In this document: positions 611 to 45,540 of the stretch, one piece after another | Numbering within the stretch: the stretch's first letter is position 1 | How the letters are laid out: every line of letters starts with the position of its first letter | Assembly: GCA_902785705.1 (NCBI GenBank) | Contig: CACZZN010000011.1 | Span: forward strand, 605 to 64,604 | DNA: 64,000 nucleotides | Source: an uncultured Veillonellaceae bacterium | GTDB taxonomy: Bacteria; Bacillota; Negativicutes; Selenomonadales; Selenomonadaceae | Reading direction: 5' to 3' | The notes under the pieces: generated by a model | The model's database searches: none | What the model saw: the letters and a program-made list of their open reading frames with translations, nothing else | What the model was told of the DNA's origin: nothing | Position numbers and translations under genes: made by a program

Positions 611-2379
611 TTTCTAAACCGCCTATGCGGCGGATAACTGTGTCCCCTTCTTTTGGTATCACGACCTGCATTTCTAAACCGCCTATGCGGCGGATAACAT
701 CCTCCTATTGGCTGGGCTGCCTCAGACTTATTTCTAAACCGCCTATGCGGCGGATAACCAATCAAATCAATGCGGCGAATATGCCGTACTTTTCTAAACC
801 ACCTATGCGGCGGATAACGGCAGCATATTTATTGGCGTTCGCCTGTGCTTTTTCTAAACCGCCTATGCGGCGGATAACCTGGGCGTATGCACGATATGCG
901 GAAAAGCCATTTTCTAAACCGCCTATGCGGCGGATAACATCGCGCCTTACGCCGTTTCGGTCAACGATGTTTTCTAAACCGCCTATGCGGCGGATAACAA
1001 GCATCGCTTTCCCATCGGCGATGGCAGACTTTTCTAAACCGCCTATGCGGCGGATAACAGGGGTAGGAGATTGCCGGGTAATTCCAAGGTTTTCTAAACC
1101 GCCTATGCGGCGGATAACATTGGCCTGCTTGAGGCCGTCGATCTCCAGCTTTTCTAAACCGCCTATGCGGCGGATAACCGTATCTTCACGGGCAGCCAAT
1201 CCGCCTGACATTTCTAAACCGCCTATGCGGCGGATAACCAGCTGTCCCATTGACCTTCGCATAGGTCTTATTTCTAAACCGCCTATGCGGCGGATAACTT
1301 GCGCCGCTGCTCCTGATTGCTCTCCCATGCTTTTCTAAACCGCCTATGCGGCGGATAACACCATTACTATCTCTGGGCTATGGAAGTAACATTTCTAAAC
1401 CGCCTATGCGGCGGATAACGGCTGATGCCGATGTCGTTCGGTCCTGCATATTTTCTAAACCGCCTATGCGGCGGATAACTTTTTCAGGCGCACGTTGCGG
1501 CTGCCGCCGTATTTCTAAACCGCCTATGCGGCGGATAACAACCATAGGATAGAGAATGGACAACACCGTATTTTCTAAACCGCCTATGCGGCGGATAACT
1601 CCGTCCTTTTTCTTTTCTCCCCTGCACGGCATTTCTAAACCGCCTATGCGGCGGATAACAAAGAGATGCTCGTTCTCACGGAATGCCCGAATTTCTAAAC
1701 CGCCTATGCGGCGGATAACGGATGCAATCAGCCTTTCCTGCCTTCGCGGTATTTCTAAACCGCCTATGCGGCGGATAACCTTCGGCAGGGCGGGAACGGA
1801 AGCAAGGAAATTTTCTAAACCGCCTATGCGGCGGATAACTTATGATTGCAGACGGAAACGGCGGCGCATATTTTCTAAACCGCCTATGCGGCGGATAACC
1901 TGTGTCTTTATCTGCTCATTGATACCGCCAATTTCTAAACCGCCTATGCGGCGGATAACGAGATGCTGCCGGGGACACGAGCGGCGGCTATTTTCTAAAC
2001 CGCCTATGCGGCGGATAACTACTTCGACAACGGTACGGTATGGCACACCACTTTCTAAACCGCCTATGCGGCGGATAACCTTCGCAGGCGTGAGATAACC
2101 GCCATGTTTGCTTTCTAAACCGCCTATGCGGCGGATAACCGTCATTTTACGCTTCTCCCTTATTTTACGAATTTCTAAACCGCCTATGCGGCGGATAACA
2201 GGCGGCGGCTCCTGCACCTGCGACGAAGGGATTTCTAAACCGCCTATGCGGCGGATAACCAGCCGCAGGATTCACGCGCATGATAGAAGTTTTTCTAAAC
2301 CGCCTATGCGGCGGATAACATTTGAAAGGAGTAATGACAAATGTCTCTTATTTTCTAAACCGCCTATGCGGCGGATAAC
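611..2379 (-). CRISPR. Type I-F CRISPR array, 30 repeats / 29 spacers
   Basis: 28-nt repeat TTTCTAAACCGCCTATGCGGCGGATAAC on the + strand, which is GTTATCCGCCGCATAGGCGGTTTAGAAA on the - strand. This fits the I-F consensus: CCGCC/GGCGG stem and TTAGAAA 3' handle. Repeat starts are 611, 671 ... 1271, then 1332 ... 2352. Spacers are 32 nt except one of 33 nt (1299-1331). One variant repeat at 791-818. Confidence 0.97.
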
Positions 2380-5104: not shown

Positions 5105-6267
5105 AATTGCACCTCCTTGGTGTCCAGCAGGATATCGTGGATTCTGTGGCGTAGGGCATTGAATTCCGCGTCGCCCAGGTCAAAGGCATCCTTTTTCAGG
5201 AGTTCCTGATAGGTGTGAAGCATCCATTCGGCAAACTCTCTTGAAATTTCTTTGCTCCATGTGTCATCGGATTGGCGCTCTTCCTCATAGAGACTGTCCA
5301 GCCAGATTTTTTGATGACGGGATATGCGGCAGGTTTCCGCATCGGACCATCCACTTTCCAAACTTCGGAGCCGAAATACGCGCATAAGGATCCGGTCGAT
5401 GATGGCATCCTCGGCATCTCTTGTATCCCGGCGGATGTCCTTGTTATTCCGCTGTACGCCATAAAGATAATGCAGGTTATAGAACAGGGAGGAATAGCGT
5501 TTGGTTCGCAGCGATTGGAAGAAATTCCGTTTGGGCGGAAGGATTTCCCGCCGGGGAAGGTGCGGAGGAAAGGCGGGGATTAGGTAGGCTCTGCCGCCAT
5601 TCATGTTATTGAGTGTAGATATATTCTGCGGCTTGGTCCCACCAAAACTGCTCTCACTCAGATCAAAAACCTTCCTGTAGGTCGTGAGATATTGATCGCT
5701 TTTTTTATCCTGGGATGCCCTTGCTTGCGCTTCCATGTTACGAAGCCGCTTCCTCAGCTCCAACATCAGGGAAGAAGCGGGAAGAACGGAGAGAAGATGG
5801 TATTGATTCTCTCCGATGGGGAAAAAGACTTGCCGGATTCGCTCATCCGTCGCATCCGGAATATAATCTTCCTTTACATTCAAAATATTATTACGAACCA
5901 CTGTATAGTCGATTTGCAACGAAGAGAGATCCTGACGAAGTTTTTCCGTATTTTCCTTGAAGTGGGAAAGAACCGTTTTTTTATCTTCCAGCTCCAGCAA
6001 AAGGAATCGGGAGATAGCGAGAAACGCAGCCGATGATACGGTGATATCTTTGGTGCAGGCAACCGCATCCGTGGTGATATATCCGTCGAGGGTGTCGTTC
6101 TTTACGCTATGGGATATCTTTACGTCTGCGGACGGATGGGAAAAGCGGCCAACATAGAAAGACGTCGTGCATTTTGAAGCATTCAGGGATGTTGCCATGA
6201 GCCATTCTTCTACATTTTTTCCTTTTTTGGCCGCCTCTTCGGTCATATAGGACATTATGATATTCAA
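5101..6267 (-). CDS. cas8f: Cas8f (Csy1) large subunit
   Basis: About 390-aa ORF in the canonical slot between cas2-3 and cas5f. No diagnostic motif recognised. Start chosen as TTG 6267, 7 nt after GGAGG (6279-6275). Alternatives: ATG 6256 or the ORF-track start 6291. Confidence 0.75.
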   Translation of the reverse strand: MNIIMSYMTEEAAKKGKNVEEWLMATSLNASKCTTSFYVGRFSHPSADVKISHSVKNDTLDGYITTDAVACTKDITVSSAAFLAISRFLLLELEDKKTVLSHFKENTEKLRQDLSSLQIDYTVVRNNILNVKEDYIPDATDERIRQVFFPIGENQYHLLSVLPASSLMLELRKRLRNMEAQARASQDKKSDQYLTTYRKVFDLSESSFGGTKPQNISTLNNMNGGRAYLIPAFPPHLPRREILPPKRNFFQSLRTKRYSSLFYNLHYLYGVQRNNKDIRRDTRDAEDAIIDRILMRVFRLRSLESGWSDAETCRISRHQKIWLDSLYEEERQSDDTWSKEISREFAEWMLHTYQELLKKDAFDLGDAEFNALRHRIHDILLDTKEVQL

Positions 6268-6301
6268 GGTTCTCCCTCCTTGAGACTGCAATCATATTTG
6301 C

Positions 6302-6485
6302 ACCTGAATCCGTGAAACTGGATGGATGTATGATGTACTTGCTATGTCCGCCCCCTTGGGGGCGGGGAACCATCGAAGATGGTGGTGGGGGTGACGATTT
6401 TGACACATTGCCCCCCACCACCGCCGATGGCGATCCCCCGCCCCCAAAGGGGGACGGACAGTGTTCGAGTTTCACGGATTCAGGT
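6302..6485. repeat. ~185-bp imperfect palindrome rich in G and C runs (predicted cas8f leader hairpin)
   Basis: Perfect 17-bp terminal arms: ACCTGAATCCGTGAAAC (6302-6318) and GTTTCACGGATTCAGGT (6469-6485). Inner arms: GTCCGCCCCCTTGGGGGCGGGGA vs TCCCCCGCCCCCAAAGGGGGACGGAC, and GGTGGTGGGGG (6381-6391) vs CCCCCCACCACC (6411-6422). Confidence 0.85.
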
Positions 6486-6492
6486 TGTATAT

Positions 6493-6521
6493 AAGATACC
6501 ACGATAGCAGAAAATAGTCAA
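6493..6521 (-). promoter_or_regulatory. Putative sigma70 promoter TTGACT-N14-TGG-TATCTT (extended -10) pointing into the palindrome and cas8f
   Basis: - strand TTGACT at 6521-6516, TGG at 6501-6499, TATCTT at 6498-6493. The predicted transcription start (~6486) coincides with the 5' base of the palindrome. Confidence 0.45.
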
Positions 6522-6523
6522 TA

Positions 6524-6544
6524 ATAATTTTTTTAATATCAAGG
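6524..6544 (-). promoter_or_regulatory. Predicted self-target of the mini-CRISPR guide (protospacer 6542->6524 plus CC PAM 6544-6543)
   Basis: - strand CC|TTGATATTAAAAAAATTAT is 17/19 identical to the psi-spacer. Mismatches are only at positions 12 and 18. The site lies 2 bp from the -35 TTGACT. Confidence 0.5.
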
Positions 6545-6546
6545 AT

Positions 6547-6621
6547 ATAATATGCCGCCTGTCCGGCGGCTAAAAAAATTTCTTTAATATCAATTTCTAA
6601 GCCGCCTGTTCGGCGGAGGTA
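6547..6621 (-). CRISPR. Degenerate single-spacer mini-CRISPR (psiR1 - 19-nt psi-spacer - psiR2), CreA/CreR-like
   Basis: psiR1 (6621->6594) TACCTCCGCCGAACAGGCGGCTTAGAAA is 21/28 identical to the array repeat. psiR2 (6574->6547) TTTAGCCGCCGGACAGGCGGCATATTAT is 19/28 identical. Both keep the CCGCC/GGCGG stem. The spacer is TTGATATTAAAGAAATTTT. Confidence 0.65.
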
Positions 6622-6627
6622 TTCTGC

Positions 6628-6656
6628 TTGCGACAAAAGAATTTTTGATGTATACT
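6628..6656 (+). promoter_or_regulatory. Putative promoter TTGCGA-17-TATACT for the + strand small RNA
   Basis: TTGCGA 6628-6633, 17-nt spacer, TATACT 6651-6656. Confidence 0.45.
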
Positions 6657-6662
6657 GATAGC

Positions 6663-6759
6663 AAAGAGGGGTGCCGCCTAGCGGTTTCGCCCTCAGATGG
6701 GATATCCTTAGATTACCCGCCTTCTAAGCTAGCAACTAGGAAAGGCGGGTTACTTTTTT
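6663..6759 (+). ncRNA. Candidate ~95-nt small RNA convergent with, and overlapping the 3' end of, the peptide gene
   Basis: Bounded by the promoter above and an intrinsic terminator: ACCCGCCTT (6715-6723) / AAGGCGGGT (6742-6750) followed by TACTTTTTT. Has an internal GAGGG...CCCUC hairpin. No plausible SD plus start codon. Confidence 0.4.
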
Positions 6760-6815
6760 ATCGTCATGAGGATCAACAAAATCAACAGCAAAGCCATGAT
6801 CAGGTTATCATCCAT
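6750..6815 (-). CDS. 21-aa hydrophobic peptide MDDNLIMALLLILLILMTIKK (type I toxin-like)
   Basis: ATG 6815 lies 7 nt after the strong SD AAAGGAGGG. Stop TAA 6752-6750. Single predicted TM helix with a KK tail. The SD can pair in a GCCCUC/GAGGGC hairpin (6843-6822). Too short for the ORF track. Confidence 0.45.
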   Translation of the reverse strand: MDDNLIMALLLILLILMTIKK

Positions 6816-6869
6816 AGGCGAGCCCTCCTTTCGCAGTGAGGGCAAGCTCCGCCGAACGGCACCATGGAT

Positions 6870-6899
6870 ATTATAACGTGTTTATTTACATATTGACAA
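6870..6899 (-). promoter_or_regulatory. Putative promoter TTGTCA-18-TATAAT for the peptide gene; -35 lies inside the last codons of cas2-3
   Basis: - strand TTGTCA 6899-6894, TATAAT 6875-6870. The cas2-3 stop is at 6888-6886. Confidence 0.5.
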
Positions 6900-9800
6900 G
6901 AGAAGAATCTGTGAAATTGTGTTTTTGCTTATTCGGGTCATTCTTTTTCCATAAGCCTAACTGATCAGAATAAAGCAGGGTATATCGCGAACCCGCGCCA
7001 TAATACGGTATTGTAATCCTGCCGAATTTTTCGCTGAGAGATTCCATTCTTGCCTCTTCTGCTTCGGGAGGGCAGTCGGGATGCAGAGCCTGTTCCCGAA
7101 GGGACGCTATATAGTCCCGCTCCAGCCAAAGTCGTTTCTTTGCAGTAGTATCTATCATATCCGTAGCAAATTCAATATGGTAGCTATCTTCCTTAGCGAT
7201 ATACTCTCCCGTCCTTGCCCGTTCATAGAATTTGGGTTTTCGATTTCTATAGCAGAGGCATAGCGGGATTTGCGGAGTTCCATCCCGGAATGGATGGAGC
7301 ATCTGCGGGAGTCCCGTCATCCACCAATATTCCCTGAGATATCCGTGCAATGTGTCGGGGCCGACGGCAGATATATCACAGAAGTCCTGCATGACTTGAT
7401 GTTCCAAATGAATCAGGTGCTTTCCCGGTTCCAGAGGGAATGGCTTGCGGATTCTCGGAACGGCATCTACTTTCGTCAGCAGATCAGACGCGTTTACCAA
7501 GTCGTTCATATCGTGGCTATCCAACGGATACCGTTCGGATGTTTCATAGCCGGGATGACAAAAAGCCGGACTTTTGCCATCCAGTCCTTTGAGATTGTAT
7601 TGCAGGATGGCAATATTGGGAGTGGAGATATCTTCCTTGAGGTTCCGATGGCGGAGAACCCTTCCCGCCAGCTGGATGATGGAGCGGTAGGAGGATGGCT
7701 CCACCACAGCCCAGTCAAAATCATGATCCCGGCCGATTTCTTCCACGGGTGTCGAGATGACAAGAAAAAGAAGATTTTCCTCAGAGACGCTATTGATATG
7801 TGAACGGAGAACAGGATCGTCCGAAAGGATGGAAGAGGCGGCTCCTTTGCGTTTTAATACCCGGTCCAGGTAAGTTTCCTGCTCATGGCGCAGCAGCAGC
7901 GTCTGACGACTGTGATAGGTCATCAGACGTACGGCATAGCCTGCCCAATCCGCATGCAGGAGAAACAGGCTCAGGTATACGCAGGGATCGATGTTTGCCA
8001 TGCGGATCAGACCAAAGGATATTTTCTTCCCGGATACGGTGTCGATGAAACAGTGGGCGTTATGCAGGGAAATGGCGGTTTTCTGTATTTGTGCGAAATA
8101 CAGAAGCCTCTGCTGCGATTCCTCCACATTTTCTTCTTTAAGGATCGGTACAAGACATGCTTTTCGCTTGACCATTTGCCGGTCAAGTTTCATGATTCGC
8201 TTATCTACGAACTCCCGGTGAAGTTTTTTGTATTCTTGTCCGAAAGTTTCTGAGTTTCCCGAAATCGGACAAACTGCCGTTCTGAATTCATCGCACCAAG
8301 CACAGAGGATTTGCGCATGCTGTTGAGTGAATCCGTTGTAGAGAACACGACCTTCCCAATAGGCGCAAAACAGTCCTTCTGCCAGGTCAGGCGGGATGGT
8401 AGCAGACGAAATTGCTACATTTCTTCCCAACATACCGGCTAAATGGACAAGATGGGCGATGGGAATCAGGTCGTTTGCATTGAAATCGTCCACTTCGTCG
8501 ATTACAAGGTCGGATGACATCAACCGCAGGAAAGGCAGCATGTATTTGCCTCCCCGAGTGCTTTCCGTCGCGCGGATGAGATGGTCAATGGTTGCAACGA
8601 GTACCGGTTTATAGAGAAAGGCCCGATTTTTCTTTGTGAAGCCGGGCTTGTTGTTGTCAAAGAAAATGTCGAGAAAGCTGTCCGAACTATCCAGTGCATA
8701 GTGAATGCCACTATCCAGCAAATCCTCCTGCCCTTCTTCCCCAAAAACGGAATCCTCCTGTGTCTGTTGGTACAGTTCTTGTACCGCGGAATCGCCAATC
8801 AGGACGGCCAGTTCGTCCTCGTCCAGGCCGATGCGCTGACGATATTCGGTTCCTGTCTGCAGAGTCAGGGAACGTAACCCCAAGGCAAGGACGTAGCGAA
8901 GGGATTTTCCGTCTTTTGATACAGCTTGCATGATTTTGGCATTAGCGATGGTTTTCCCGCAACCCGTACTTGCCATGTTCACGATGAACCAGCCATTTTC
9001 CGCGTCCGTGTCCTGTGCCTCACGGAAATAGCGGATGGTCTCCACTGCGGTATCCTGCCAAAGGAAGGGTTTGGGACTTTTCTTCCTCAAAGAACGGATG
9101 TCTCTGGCGAACTCCATCCGTTCGGCCAGTTGAGGCAGACGATGCGCGATTTTCAAAGCCTGTGCCGTCACACGTACCAGATGTTCATCCAGTTTCTGCC
9201 CGCCACCGGATTTGGCGTACAGATCGCAGTCCGTTTTCCAATTCGGGTCGGCAGGATTGGAAGAGGAAGAGACGTAATAATCCGCCATCATCATGCTCAG
9301 ACGCGCGTAATGCAGAACAGGACGCAGGGACGGAGTATCAAGAAGCCGCAGGATGTGTTCCCGTTCCTCCGATAGCCTTTGTGCCCACTTCTTCACCTGC
9401 TTGCTCCAAGGGTCGGATTTCTTCAGGAGCCCACGGGCGAATTTGACCGGGACGGAGGTGTCCTTCTGATATCCCCAATTGCTTTCTATGACTGACAGTA
9501 CGGAGGAAAGGGAGTTCTTTGCGTTCCCCTTGTACTTCGTGGCAATCTCCTTGTCTAAGACAGGCATACGGTGGTGGGTGAGGATGAGCCAGCAGATGAG
9601 ACTTGCAATAGGAGGGAAATGGGAGAAGGGTTCATCCATCACATCGGGAAGTTTCTTCAGGATCTGCTTCTCATCGAAGGATTGATTTTGCAAACTTTCC
9701 ATCCATATCCTGTCATCCTCTCCGGATTCCGTGGCTGCAATCAGAGCAGAAATCAATTTGCAGGAGATCCATTCGTGTCGGAAAGGGTCCTTCCCTTTGG

Positions 9801-24758: not shown

Positions 24759-24844
24759 TGGTGGGCAGGGATGGATTCGAACCATCGTAGCCGTAAGGCG
24801 ACGGATTTACAGTCCGTTCCCTTTAACCACTCGGGCACCTACCC
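24759..24844 (-). tRNA. tRNA-Tyr (GTA)
   Basis: 86 nt. GGGTAGG/CCTGCCC acceptor stem, anticodon loop CTGTAAA, long variable arm, GGTTCGAATCC T-loop, encoded CCA. Confidence 0.93.
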
Positions 24845-24850
24845 ACATCA

Positions 24851-24928
24851 TGGTGACCCAGGAGGGACTCGAACCCCCGACCCTTTGATTCGTAGTCAAA
24901 TACTCTAATCCAGCTGAGCTACTGGGCC
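24851..24928 (-). tRNA. tRNA-Arg (ACG)
   Basis: 78 nt. Anticodon loop CTACGAA, GGTTCGAGTCC T-loop, CCA. Confidence 0.93.
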
Positions 24929-24953
24929 ATGATATGAAAACTTTATGCAATTG

Positions 24954-25030
24954 TGGTGGGCCCACTTGGACTCGAACCAAGGACCGACCGGTTATGAGCC
25001 GGTTGCTCTAACCAACTGAGCTATAGGCCC
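24954..25030 (-). tRNA. tRNA with CAT anticodon (Met, or lysidine-modified Ile2)
   Basis: 77 nt. Anticodon loop CTCATAA, GGTTCGAGTCC T-loop, CCA. The body resembles ileX-type tRNAs, but this cannot be decided from sequence alone. Confidence 0.9.
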
Positions 25031-25068
25031 ATAAATATCAATCCGGCTGACCGGATGCATAAACAGAA

Positions 25069-25143
25069 TGGAGCGGAAAACGAGGCTCGAACTCGCGACC
25101 CCCACCTTGGCAAGGTGGTGCTCTACCACTGAGCTATTTCCGC
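25069..25143 (-). tRNA. tRNA-Gly (GCC), copy 1
   Basis: 75 nt. Anticodon loop TTGCCAA, AGTTCGAGCCT T-loop, CCA. Confidence 0.93.
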
Positions 25144-25147
25144 GACA

Positions 25148-25222
25148 TGGAGCGGAAAACGAGGCTCGAACTCGCGACCCCCACCTTGGCAAGGTGGTGC
25201 TCTACCACTGAGCTATTTCCGC
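25148..25222 (-). tRNA. tRNA-Gly (GCC), copy 2 (identical tandem copy)
   Basis: Sequence identical to copy 1, 79 nt upstream of it. Confidence 0.93.
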
Positions 25223-25292
25223 GTCCTCCTGCCAAGCACTCCCACAGGATCAACAAACAATCCCCCGTGCCAGTGGCTGACTGACAAAGACT

Positions 25293-43132: not shown

Positions 43133-43221
<89 letters not shown>

Positions 43222-43222
43222 C

Positions 43223-43311
43223 GGAGTGGTACTCAAGAGGCTGAAGAGGACGGTTTGCTAAATCGTTAGAGTCGCAAGGCTGCGAGAGTTCGAATCTCTC
43301 CCACTCCGCCA
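43223..43311 (+). tRNA. tRNA-Ser (GCT)
   Basis: 89 nt. Anticodon loop TTGCTAA, long variable arm, AGTTCGAATCT T-loop, CCA. Followed by a terminator hairpin at 43325-43361. Confidence 0.93.
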
Positions 43312-45401: not shown

Positions 45402-45540
45402 CAGGACATGCCTGACAAACGCCATAGGGTATATTTTGCCTATGGCAAAATTTGAACAATTGCGTTATGTCAGGACAAGCCTGACGAAACGCCATAGGGT
45501 ATATTTTGCCTATGGCAAAATTTGAACAATTGCGTTATAA
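45402..45540 (+). repeat. Tandem 69/70-bp duplication carrying palindromic operator-like sites and the glgB promoter
   Basis: Unit CAGGACA[T/A]GCCTGAC(G)AAACGCCATAGGGTATATTTTGCCTATGGCAAAATTTGAACAATTGCGTTAT occurs twice (45402-45470 and 45471-45540). Only the second unit ends in TATAAT. Confidence 0.9.

Follow-up and report, generated by a model that had tools for sequence, protein, structure and literature searches.

The 64,000-nucleotide stretch of contig CACZZN010000011.1 analysed here (the window), from a metagenome-assembled genome of an uncultured Veillonellaceae bacterium of the rumen, carries on its minus strand a complete Selenomonadaceae type I-F CRISPR-Cas locus, as judged from Pfam matches for the genes and a detected repeat array. 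The gap between cas2-3 and csy1 in this locus is unusually long (594 nt) and holds a small plus-strand RNA unit, at 6628-6759, together with a minus-strand gene for a hydrophobic peptide. Our results suggest that the plus-strand unit is probably an antitoxin gene, belonging to a type I toxin-antitoxin module that has not been described before. An initial annotation of this DNA had proposed a type I layout, in which a convergent non-coding RNA is antisense to the 3' end of the peptide gene; all of the sequence and comparative tests reported below support that core reading, and we hold it with rather more confidence than doubt.

The hallmarks of type I systems have been compiled in T1TAdb (PMC8594479). 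At the level of sequence, the locus has an RNA gene with its own promoter and terminator that is complementary to the putative toxin mRNA. The peptide is encoded by a small hydrophobic open reading frame (ORF) of membrane type, within the limit of about 60 residues, and its mRNA is predicted to fold so that the Shine-Dalgarno (SD) sequence is sequestered.

The predicted antisense RNA

The features discussed here are collected in Table 1. The promoter coordinates given by the initial annotation proved exact when the sequence was reread, as did those of the terminator, whose stem arms (ACCCGCCTT at 6715-6723 with AAGGCGGGT at 6742-6750) are followed by TACTTTTTT through 6759. Folding of 6663-6759 with RNAfold (-35.2 kcal/mol, z = -2.0) returned the structure that had been described, a GAGGG...CCCUC stem and the terminator. 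The terminator hairpin alone has a predicted energy of -16.9 kcal/mol in the window and about -17 kcal/mol in every lineage in which the module was found. In the three lineages described below, the predicted RNA is 97-99 nt long and follows the same plan of a 5' stem-loop, a variable linker and the terminator. The RNA had been said to lack a usable SD sequence plus start codon, and we agree: its single ATG (6696) opens a frame of four codons and has no SD sequence. A longer plus-strand reading frame is interrupted by stops in lineage C, and a conserved plus-strand protein was ruled out on that ground. Since the stop codon of the peptide lies at 6752-6750 on the minus strand, the plus-strand RNA is antisense to this stop and to the last three codons, much as had been proposed. 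A search of Rfam over 6200-7000, with E values up to 10, gave no match for the predicted RNA and no antitoxin RNA family.

Intrinsic terminators were scored by strict criteria, which required a perfectly paired stem of 8 bp or longer with five or more G-C pairs, a loop no longer than 20 nt, and seven or more T among the 10 bases that follow, five of them in a row. Over the two strands of the window (128 kb in all), 0.03 sites would be expected to satisfy these, and three did. The combination of such a terminator with a promoter-like site 50-200 nt before it was seen two times in the window, and 30 random sequences contained no example. Among the ORFs of the window, there is no plus-strand gene upstream that would need a terminator at 6715-6759.

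The match of the plus-strand promoter is not significant by itself, as six such sites were seen in 2.5 kb where 3.1 were expected. Three versions of it occur, TTGCGA-17-TATACT in the window, TTGCAG-17-TATACT in the related locus L015 and TTGCAA-17-TATAAT in L003, the last of which scores 10/12 in the scan. The 17-nt spacing is unchanged in all three lineages, whereas the spacer and the flanks vary. Nine of the 12 hexamer positions are invariant, compared with 14 of 41 neighbouring columns (34%; Fisher p = 0.014, three lineages), and the hexamer positions that do vary are those least conserved in promoters of the sigma-70 type.

The peptide gene

The putative toxin has 21 residues, with a 14-residue hydrophobic core between DD and KK, as in a small membrane-type hydrophobic peptide, and its consensus over the lineages is MDDNxIMALLLxLLILMTIKK. 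Five codons differ among the three lineages by synonymous changes only, and two codons alter the residue (L/S/T at position 5 and a conservative I/M at position 12); by this comparison, the peptide is under purifying selection. When the 31-residue extended ORF was compared by phmmer with 1.84 billion representative proteins, only three matches came back, all from this type of locus, which suggests a rare family that is seemingly confined to this context, although short ORFs are seldom called and this limits the inference. The exact 31-residue extended product has no record in the protein collection.

The -10 hexamer of the peptide promoter is invariant in the three lineages, and the L015 version of the promoter reads TCGACA-18-TATAAT. 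Compared with close relatives, in which cas2-3 ends ...GLWKKE*, the window cas2-3 has a 1-nt deletion (region compared: 6886-6945 on the minus strand, L016 1600-1625 and L020 2900-2930), with the result that its ORF is 19 codons longer and runs across the -35 hexamer of the peptide promoter.

The 5' untranslated region (UTR) of the peptide mRNA contains an anti-SD sequence, and the pairing GCCCUC/GAGGGC was present in every fold. In short and read-through mRNAs of all lineages, the probability that the SD sequence is unpaired was 0.01-0.12. The four variable positions of this UTR all lie outside the anti-SD/SD stem, three in the loop and one upstream in the 5' arm. Several relatives carry further changes in the same region. 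In L020 (2990-3040), a loss of 15 nt and a TCG-to-AAG change create a perfect 16-bp hairpin over the SD sequence and the AUG; in L022 (3000-3060) and L023 (1440-1490), the AAG is accompanied by a change of AGGAGGG to GGGGGGG, which makes a weaker SD sequence. These variants would lower translation of the peptide, as one expects if its translation is harmful or costly.

One of the loci, L016 (2109-3379), a close relative, is decayed: its csy1 stops after 251 residues, and a gene of the sigma-70 family comes next. It nevertheless retains an intact peptide gene, antisense promoter and adjoining mini-array.

Distribution and conservation of the module

Relatives were drawn from Csy1 homologues and their contigs, from one genome scan and from the phmmer search described above. 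The module was found in three diverged lineages, in each of them between cas2-3 and csy1. Lineage A comprises the window, L001, L016 and L020-L023; lineage B comprises L015, from Selenomonas sp. UBA9786, which L002 appears to continue; and lineage C comprises L003-L007, L012 and L014, from rumen metagenomes. The module is absent from type I-F loci whose Csy1 is 44-46% identical (L008, L011 and L017): the cas2-3/csy1 gap is 31-42 nt in L008 and L011, and the upstream sequence of L017 is unrelated. A Csy1 protein-pattern scan of genome contigs gave no relative; the C-terminus of Cas2-3, used as a query, matched only partial proteins of at most 51% identity and added no lineage. A scan of metagenome DNA returned two contigs already in the set and a chance match in a eukaryote-like ORF (L013), and viral scans with three conserved patterns returned only a chance match in an unrelated ORF (L019). 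The module had no blastn match among plasmids and phages, and neither the module nor the peptide has a paralogue within the window.

Over the 248 nt from the peptide -10 to the plus-strand -35, the DNA of the window shares 87% identity with lineage B and 81% with lineage C, compared with 55-59% for the last 600 nt of cas2-3 and 63% for the first 600 nt of csy1. Non-coding DNA is thus better kept than the adjoining genes, which indicates constraint at the nucleotide level. The invariant positions are given by segment in Table 2; pairs were counted by hand and the alignments made segment by segment, because MAFFT misaligned the lineage C terminator arm.

Table 2. Positions invariant across the three lineages, by segment, in minus-strand order
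Segment	Invariant positions
Peptide promoter -10	6/6
Peptide promoter -10 to +1	0/7
5' UTR	43/47
Peptide ORF	57/66
Terminator arms	7/7 each
Terminator loop	11/20
Linker	9/21
Conserved element	23/24
Element to plus-strand -10	6/15
Plus-strand -10	5/6
Plus-strand spacer	7/17
Plus-strand -35	4/6
Plus-strand -35 to psiR1	1/9

Proposed mechanism

A strong minus-strand promoter (6899-6870) would produce the mRNA for the 21-residue peptide, in which a predicted 5' UTR hairpin locks both the SD sequence and the start codon, so that the primary transcript would be poorly translated. The convergent plus-strand promoter would produce an RNA of about 97 nt, ending at its intrinsic terminator, with perfect complementarity to the mRNA over its final three codons, its stop codon and its 3' hairpin. 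The minimal overlap would be about 45-50 nt; in lineages A and B, where read-through of the mRNA is expected, it would extend to about 97 nt. Pairing may begin between the complementary hairpin loops and proceed to a long duplex, which would be degraded by duplex-specific and other RNases, by analogy with txpA/RatA, bsrG/SR4 and the RCd RNAs of Clostridioides difficile (PMC5961336). When the complementary region was blocked in the model, access to the SD sequence was unchanged, and an effect of antisense binding on this access was dropped as a possibility. As pairing of the RNA 5' domain with the ribosome-binding site was also no better than random, decay of the mRNA is favoured over a translational block. 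An action in trans on the ribosome-binding site like that of SprA1as was dropped as well, since the energies were at the level of shuffles and only 6 bp of anti-SD/SD pairing is possible. The neighbouring mini-array would guide Cascade to the csy promoter rather than to the peptide promoter. We infer that the module is likely to be an addiction element that stabilises its part of the cas locus.

The neighbouring mini-array

Next to the antisense promoter lies a mini-array of two degenerate repeats, psiR1 and psiR2, which match the repeat of the CRISPR array at 21 and 19 of 28 positions, respectively; Rfam gives a weak CRISPR-DR4 match here (E = 6e-4). The intervening psi-spacer matches, at 17 of 19 positions (mismatches at 12 and 18), a protospacer that is flanked by a CC protospacer-adjacent motif (PAM) and ends 2 nt upstream of the csy -35. 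In the window, L003, L007 and L016, each locus has a single CC-flanked match, by the csy promoter, and none near the peptide promoter. Spacer and target co-vary through four versions, which are TTGATATTAAAG in the window, TTGGTTTTTTTATTTTG in L003 (a perfect 17-nt match), TTAGTT against TTAGTA in L007, and TTGGTATTTTA in L015 with L002; across these versions, the mismatches fall at positions 6, 12 and 18. The sequences fit a CreR-type autoregulatory mini-array aimed at the csy promoter, not CreTA. Because the only Cascade target is at the csy promoter, the peptide is not a Cascade-repressed toxin of the CreT type.

Membership of the CreTA group was rejected, as the peptide promoter contains no PAM-flanked match to the spacer. 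A second Cascade target was sought at the peptide and antisense promoters, and neither has one with a CC PAM and an intact seed. A 14/19 match to the spacer at 6628-6646 was discarded; it has a GC PAM and a broken seed and is absent from the other lineages.

None of the lineages showed a sigma-70-like promoter for the mini-array. The conserved hexamers were considered as a minus-strand promoter for it and set aside, there being no consistent -35/-10 pair across the lineages. The initial annotation held that transcription of the mini-array must collide with that of the plus-strand RNA; since no mini-array promoter was identified, this necessity is not established, and a collision is possible. 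As no such promoter was found, the array may depend on read-through from the peptide gene, which would then face the plus-strand promoter head-on. Within psiR1, the 5' arm and loop (6608-6618) form an 11-nt perfect inverted repeat with the peptide 5' UTR at 6847-6857 (GTTCGGCGGAG / CTCCGCCGAAC). In lineages B and C, this pairing persists by means of G.U pairs. It may simply result from the CCGCC/GGCGG motif that the two sites share.

Alternative explanations

One alternative, which we consider unlikely, is that the hairpin at 6715-6750 is a 3' end structure of the peptide mRNA, serving as a terminator or stabiliser, that the best-conserved 24 nt of the module act in the minus-strand RNA, either within the 3' UTR as a fold-back partner for the 5' UTR or as a leader of the mini-array, and that the plus-strand hexamers are silent or incidental, with no functional antisense RNA. 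The tails of the hairpin bear directly on this. The initial annotation had stated that the hairpin lacks a U-tract on the minus strand, and this is so in the window, where the minus-strand tail is TAATCTAAGG, as in lineage A generally, and in lineage B, where it is TAATTTAAAA. It is not so in lineage C, where U-tracts follow the hairpin on both strands and make it a bidirectional terminator, with the proper sense U-tract that the minus-strand explanation calls for. The associated claim, that the peptide mRNA probably reads through to give about 95 nt of complementarity, holds for lineages A and B, whereas in lineage C the sense U-tract would leave an overlap of about 45-50 nt. In lineages A and B, the hairpin has a good U-tract on the plus strand only, which argues against a role confined to the mRNA. 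A natural variant points the same way: in L020, a T-to-C change in the minus-strand 5' arm produces a C.A mismatch that breaks the hairpin in the minus-strand RNA and a G.U pair that spares it in the plus-strand RNA. The U-tracts of lineages A and B and this variant favour use of the hairpin on the plus strand. That the hexamers are kept at a fixed 17-nt spacing, in sequence that is otherwise 34% invariant, also argues against their being incidental.

The conserved 24 nt (6671-6694) are harder to assign to one strand. They form the core of the 5' stem-loop of the predicted RNA, and what had been described as a third repeat-like hairpin (6671-6690) is this core; its likeness to the CRISPR repeat stands only if a 4-nt deletion is allowed. 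Read on the minus strand, the element could pair with the peptide 5' UTR in a 14-bp helix that contains three G.U pairs in lineages B and C. The helix is present in the minimum-energy folds of long transcripts of both lineages, and 5'-3' locks of this kind are typical of type I toxin mRNAs (PMC8594479), which speaks for an action in the mRNA. Against such an action, the helix has an uncompensated C.A mismatch in the window lineage, and L020 has lost the proposed 5' partner while the element itself is still intact. The conservation of these 24 nt leaves room for the minus-strand RNA as the constrained molecule.

Several further observations weigh against an antitoxin function of the plus-strand RNA, and some of them speak for the minus-strand alternative as well. 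The plus-strand T-run is made of the Ile-Lys-Lys codons (ATA AAA AAG) of the peptide, so that coding constraint alone could keep it. Substitutions beside the 5' stem of the predicted RNA give G.U pairs in the minus-strand RNA and A.C mismatches in the plus-strand RNA, although the lineage C stem-loop refolds with a bulge. Because a sense U-tract follows the peptide gene in lineage C, the mRNA terminated there would not pair with the most conserved part of the RNA. No stem shows a two-sided compensatory change among the lineages, of which only three are independent. The plus-strand -35 is weak, with three or four of six matches, and the L015 version falls below the scan threshold. In trans, the RNA 5' domain and the ribosome-binding site of the peptide gave RNAduplex energies no better than those of shuffles. 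Finally, the peptide has no homology to a known toxin family, such as TxpA/BsrG, Fst/Ldr, Hok or Ibs, with no match in Pfam or NCBIfam at E values up to 10. The antitoxin reading remains the one that we favour.

We consider it quite unlikely that the peptide mRNA, the antisense RNA and the mini-array form one circuit, in which the mini-array would lack a promoter and be made by read-through from the peptide gene, Cas6f cleavage at psiR1 and antisense pairing would together decide the fate of the mRNA, and loss or inhibition of Cas6f or of the Csy proteins would unleash the peptide. In such a circuit, the peptide 5' UTR can pair either with psiR1 (a perfect 11 bp in the window) or with the conserved element of 24 nt, whose conservation leaves room for an integrated circuit with Cas6f processing at psiR1.

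Another explanation accepts the plus-strand RNA as real and makes its main job the control of the mini-array or csy, which convergent transcription or pairing would insulate from read-through that begins at the peptide promoter or in cas2-3, the peptide being a harmless small membrane protein. Such a role would suit a mini-array for which no sigma-70-like promoter was seen in any lineage and which may depend on read-through met head-on; the plus-strand -35 hexamer is only 6 nt from psiR1, and the module and the mini-array always travel together. The predicted RNA, however, terminates exactly over the peptide stop codon and has no overlap with the mini-array, a peptide behind an SD-sequestering UTR bears the classic marks of a toxin gene, and the natural UTR variants specifically tighten translational silencing. 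We therefore regard this explanation as very unlikely.

An attenuator, in which the small ORF is a leader peptide, a ribosome at its stop codon melts the hairpin and sets transcription into the mini-array, and the plus-strand features are by-products, would explain why the stop codon abuts the hairpin directly and why the hairpin is a sense terminator in lineage C, but it is highly improbable, because lineages A and B lack a sense U-tract and so have nothing to attenuate, it is odd for a sensing leader to have a constitutively sequestered ribosome-binding site, as this ORF has, and the hydrophobic helix between charges is kept through synonymous change.

Organization of the locus

Read 5' to 3' on the minus strand, the cas2-3/csy1 gap contains the near-consensus peptide promoter, the 5' UTR, the ORF, the hairpin, the conserved element (6697-6666), the mini-array, the PAM and protospacer, the csy promoter and a palindromic insertion.

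Table 1. Features of the type I-F locus and of its cas2-3/csy1 gap
Feature	Position	Strand	Details
Antisense RNA promoter	6628-6656	+	TTGCGA 6628-6633, 17-nt spacer 6634-6650, TATACT 6651-6656; scan score 9/12
Predicted non-coding antisense RNA (putative antitoxin)	6663-6759	+	about 97 nt; RNAfold; no conserved ORF
5' stem-loop of the predicted RNA	6666-6694	+	outer stem GAGGG/CCCUC, inner stem GCCGC-CUA-GCGGU
Intrinsic terminator	6715-6759	+	9-bp stem 6715-6723/6742-6750, 18-nt loop, tail TACTTTTTT
Peptide ORF (putative toxin)	6750-6815	-	MDDNLIMALLLILLILMTIKK; ATG 6815-6813, stop 6752-6750
Peptide mRNA 5' UTR	6816-6863	-	anti-SD GCCCUC 6843-6838 with SD region GGAGGGC 6828-6822
Peptide gene promoter	6870-6899	-	TTGTCA, 18 nt, TATAAT; scan score 11/12; overlaps the cas2-3 3' end
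Mini-array	6547-6621	-	psiR1 6621-6594, psi-spacer 6593-6575 (19 nt), psiR2 6574-6547
PAM and protospacer	6544-6524	-	CC PAM 6544-6543, protospacer 6542-6524
csy1-4 promoter	6521-6493	-	TTGACT 6521-6516, TATCTT 6498-6493
cas1	11186-10215	-	Pfam
cas2-3	10218-6886	-	Pfam
csy1	6291-5101	-	Pfam; followed by csy2, csy3 and cas6f
CRISPR array	611-2379		at least 30 repeats; repeat GTTATCCGCCGCATAGGCGGTTTAGAAA

The insertion is a GC-rich palindromic element of 187 nt (6484-6298), situated between the csy promoter and the csy1 SD sequence. At its ends are 18-nt perfect terminal inverted repeats (6302-6319 and 6468-6485), with CAA on either flank. It is present in the window, L022 and L023, in a longer version in L023, and absent from L001, L016, L020, L003 and L007. 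It looks like an insertion of the miniature inverted-repeat transposable element type into the leader of a Cascade-repressed operon.

Elsewhere in the window there are two tRNA clusters (24762-25222 and 43133-43308), the first of which includes an exact 79-nt tandem duplication with two identical tRNA genes (25068-25223). A 70-nt unit is present in two tandem copies of 97% identity at 45402-45538, immediately 5' of an ORF that starts at 45522.

Significance and relationship to known systems

If the antitoxin reading is true, the locus encodes a new and, at 21 residues, unusually small type I toxin family with an antisense antitoxin. As far as the literature shows, the pair would be the first found described in the Selenomonadaceae (class Negativicutes), and the first found to combine a place within a type I-F cas operon with fusion to a regulatory mini-array of the CreR type; our literature search found no type I toxin-antitoxin pair fused to such a mini-array. 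It would also mean that the addiction modules recruited by CRISPR-Cas loci are not all of a single mechanism, with an antisense pair occupying the slot of the CreTA and CrePA guard modules and kept better than the cas genes. The system is compact, at about 250 bp, and could be used to test stabilisation of a cas locus or the response to loss of Cas function. Were the circuit discussed above true, the locus would hold a CRISPR guard that crosses CreTA with a type I toxin-antitoxin system and senses RNA processing, not DNA binding.

The closest parallels in layout are the txpA/RatA, bsrG/SR4, bsrE/SR5 and yonT/SR6 pairs of Bacillus subtilis, in which a gene for a hydrophobic peptide faces a convergent non-coding RNA. 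As predicted here, the RNA of those pairs is transcribed from a promoter of its own to its own terminator and overlaps the mRNA at the 3' end, the toxin SD sequence is sequestered by an upstream anti-SD sequence, and degradation of the duplex is the expected outcome. The initial annotation had matched the locus to the txpA/ratA and bsrG/SR4 arrangement; the likeness extends to the layout and not to sequence, since there is no sequence, Pfam, NCBIfam or Rfam relationship. It also differs from the B. subtilis pairs in the length of the peptide (21 residues against 30-59), in its Negativicute host and in lying inside a cas operon, not a prophage.

The module shares with Fst/RNAII (par of pAD1) and SprA1/SprA1as convergent RNAs with a common terminator hairpin, bidirectional in lineage C as it is in par, and an antitoxin 5' domain that is conserved outside the minimal overlap. 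In those systems, functional pairing takes place outside the overlap, at the toxin ribosome-binding site (PMC8594479). The 5' domain described here, in contrast, has no significant complementarity to the ribosome-binding site and instead resembles the toxin 5' UTR.

Linkage of type I pairs to CRISPR-Cas has been reported in C. difficile, where the convergent pairs CD2517.1/RCd8 and CD2907.1/RCd9 lie beside CRISPR arrays (PMC5961336). Like them, the present module combines this linkage with predicted convergent, overlapping transcripts and a small membrane protein with a sequestered ribosome-binding site. The C. difficile pairs differ in that they flank type I-B arrays, often in prophages, and encode toxins of about 50 residues. 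The module described here has no sequence relationship to them and is found within the cas operon of a type I-F locus, directly next to a regulatory mini-array.

In its position in the cas2-3/csy1 gap, the module resembles CreTA/CrePA of Acinetobacter (PMC10097628; bioRxiv 10.1101/2024.01.05.574328) and Pseudomonas aeruginosa (bioRxiv 10.64898/2026.06.02.729485), with which it also shares a degenerate two-repeat mini-array, a CC-flanked partial target and a toxin-like gene among the cas genes. The CreTA guide is directed at the promoter of the toxin, with the toxin gene located downstream of the target (PMC10097628; bioRxiv 10.1101/2024.01.05.574328). Here, by contrast, the sole target is at the csy promoter, the peptide gene is upstream of the mini-array, and the candidate antitoxin is an antisense RNA, not a guide resembling a CRISPR RNA. 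The mini-array beside the module is instead like CreR and other autoregulatory mini-arrays (bioRxiv 10.1101/2023.03.10.532045; 10.1101/2023.03.03.530964), with two degenerate repeats, a short spacer, a PAM-flanked match in the effector promoter and mismatches at every sixth position.

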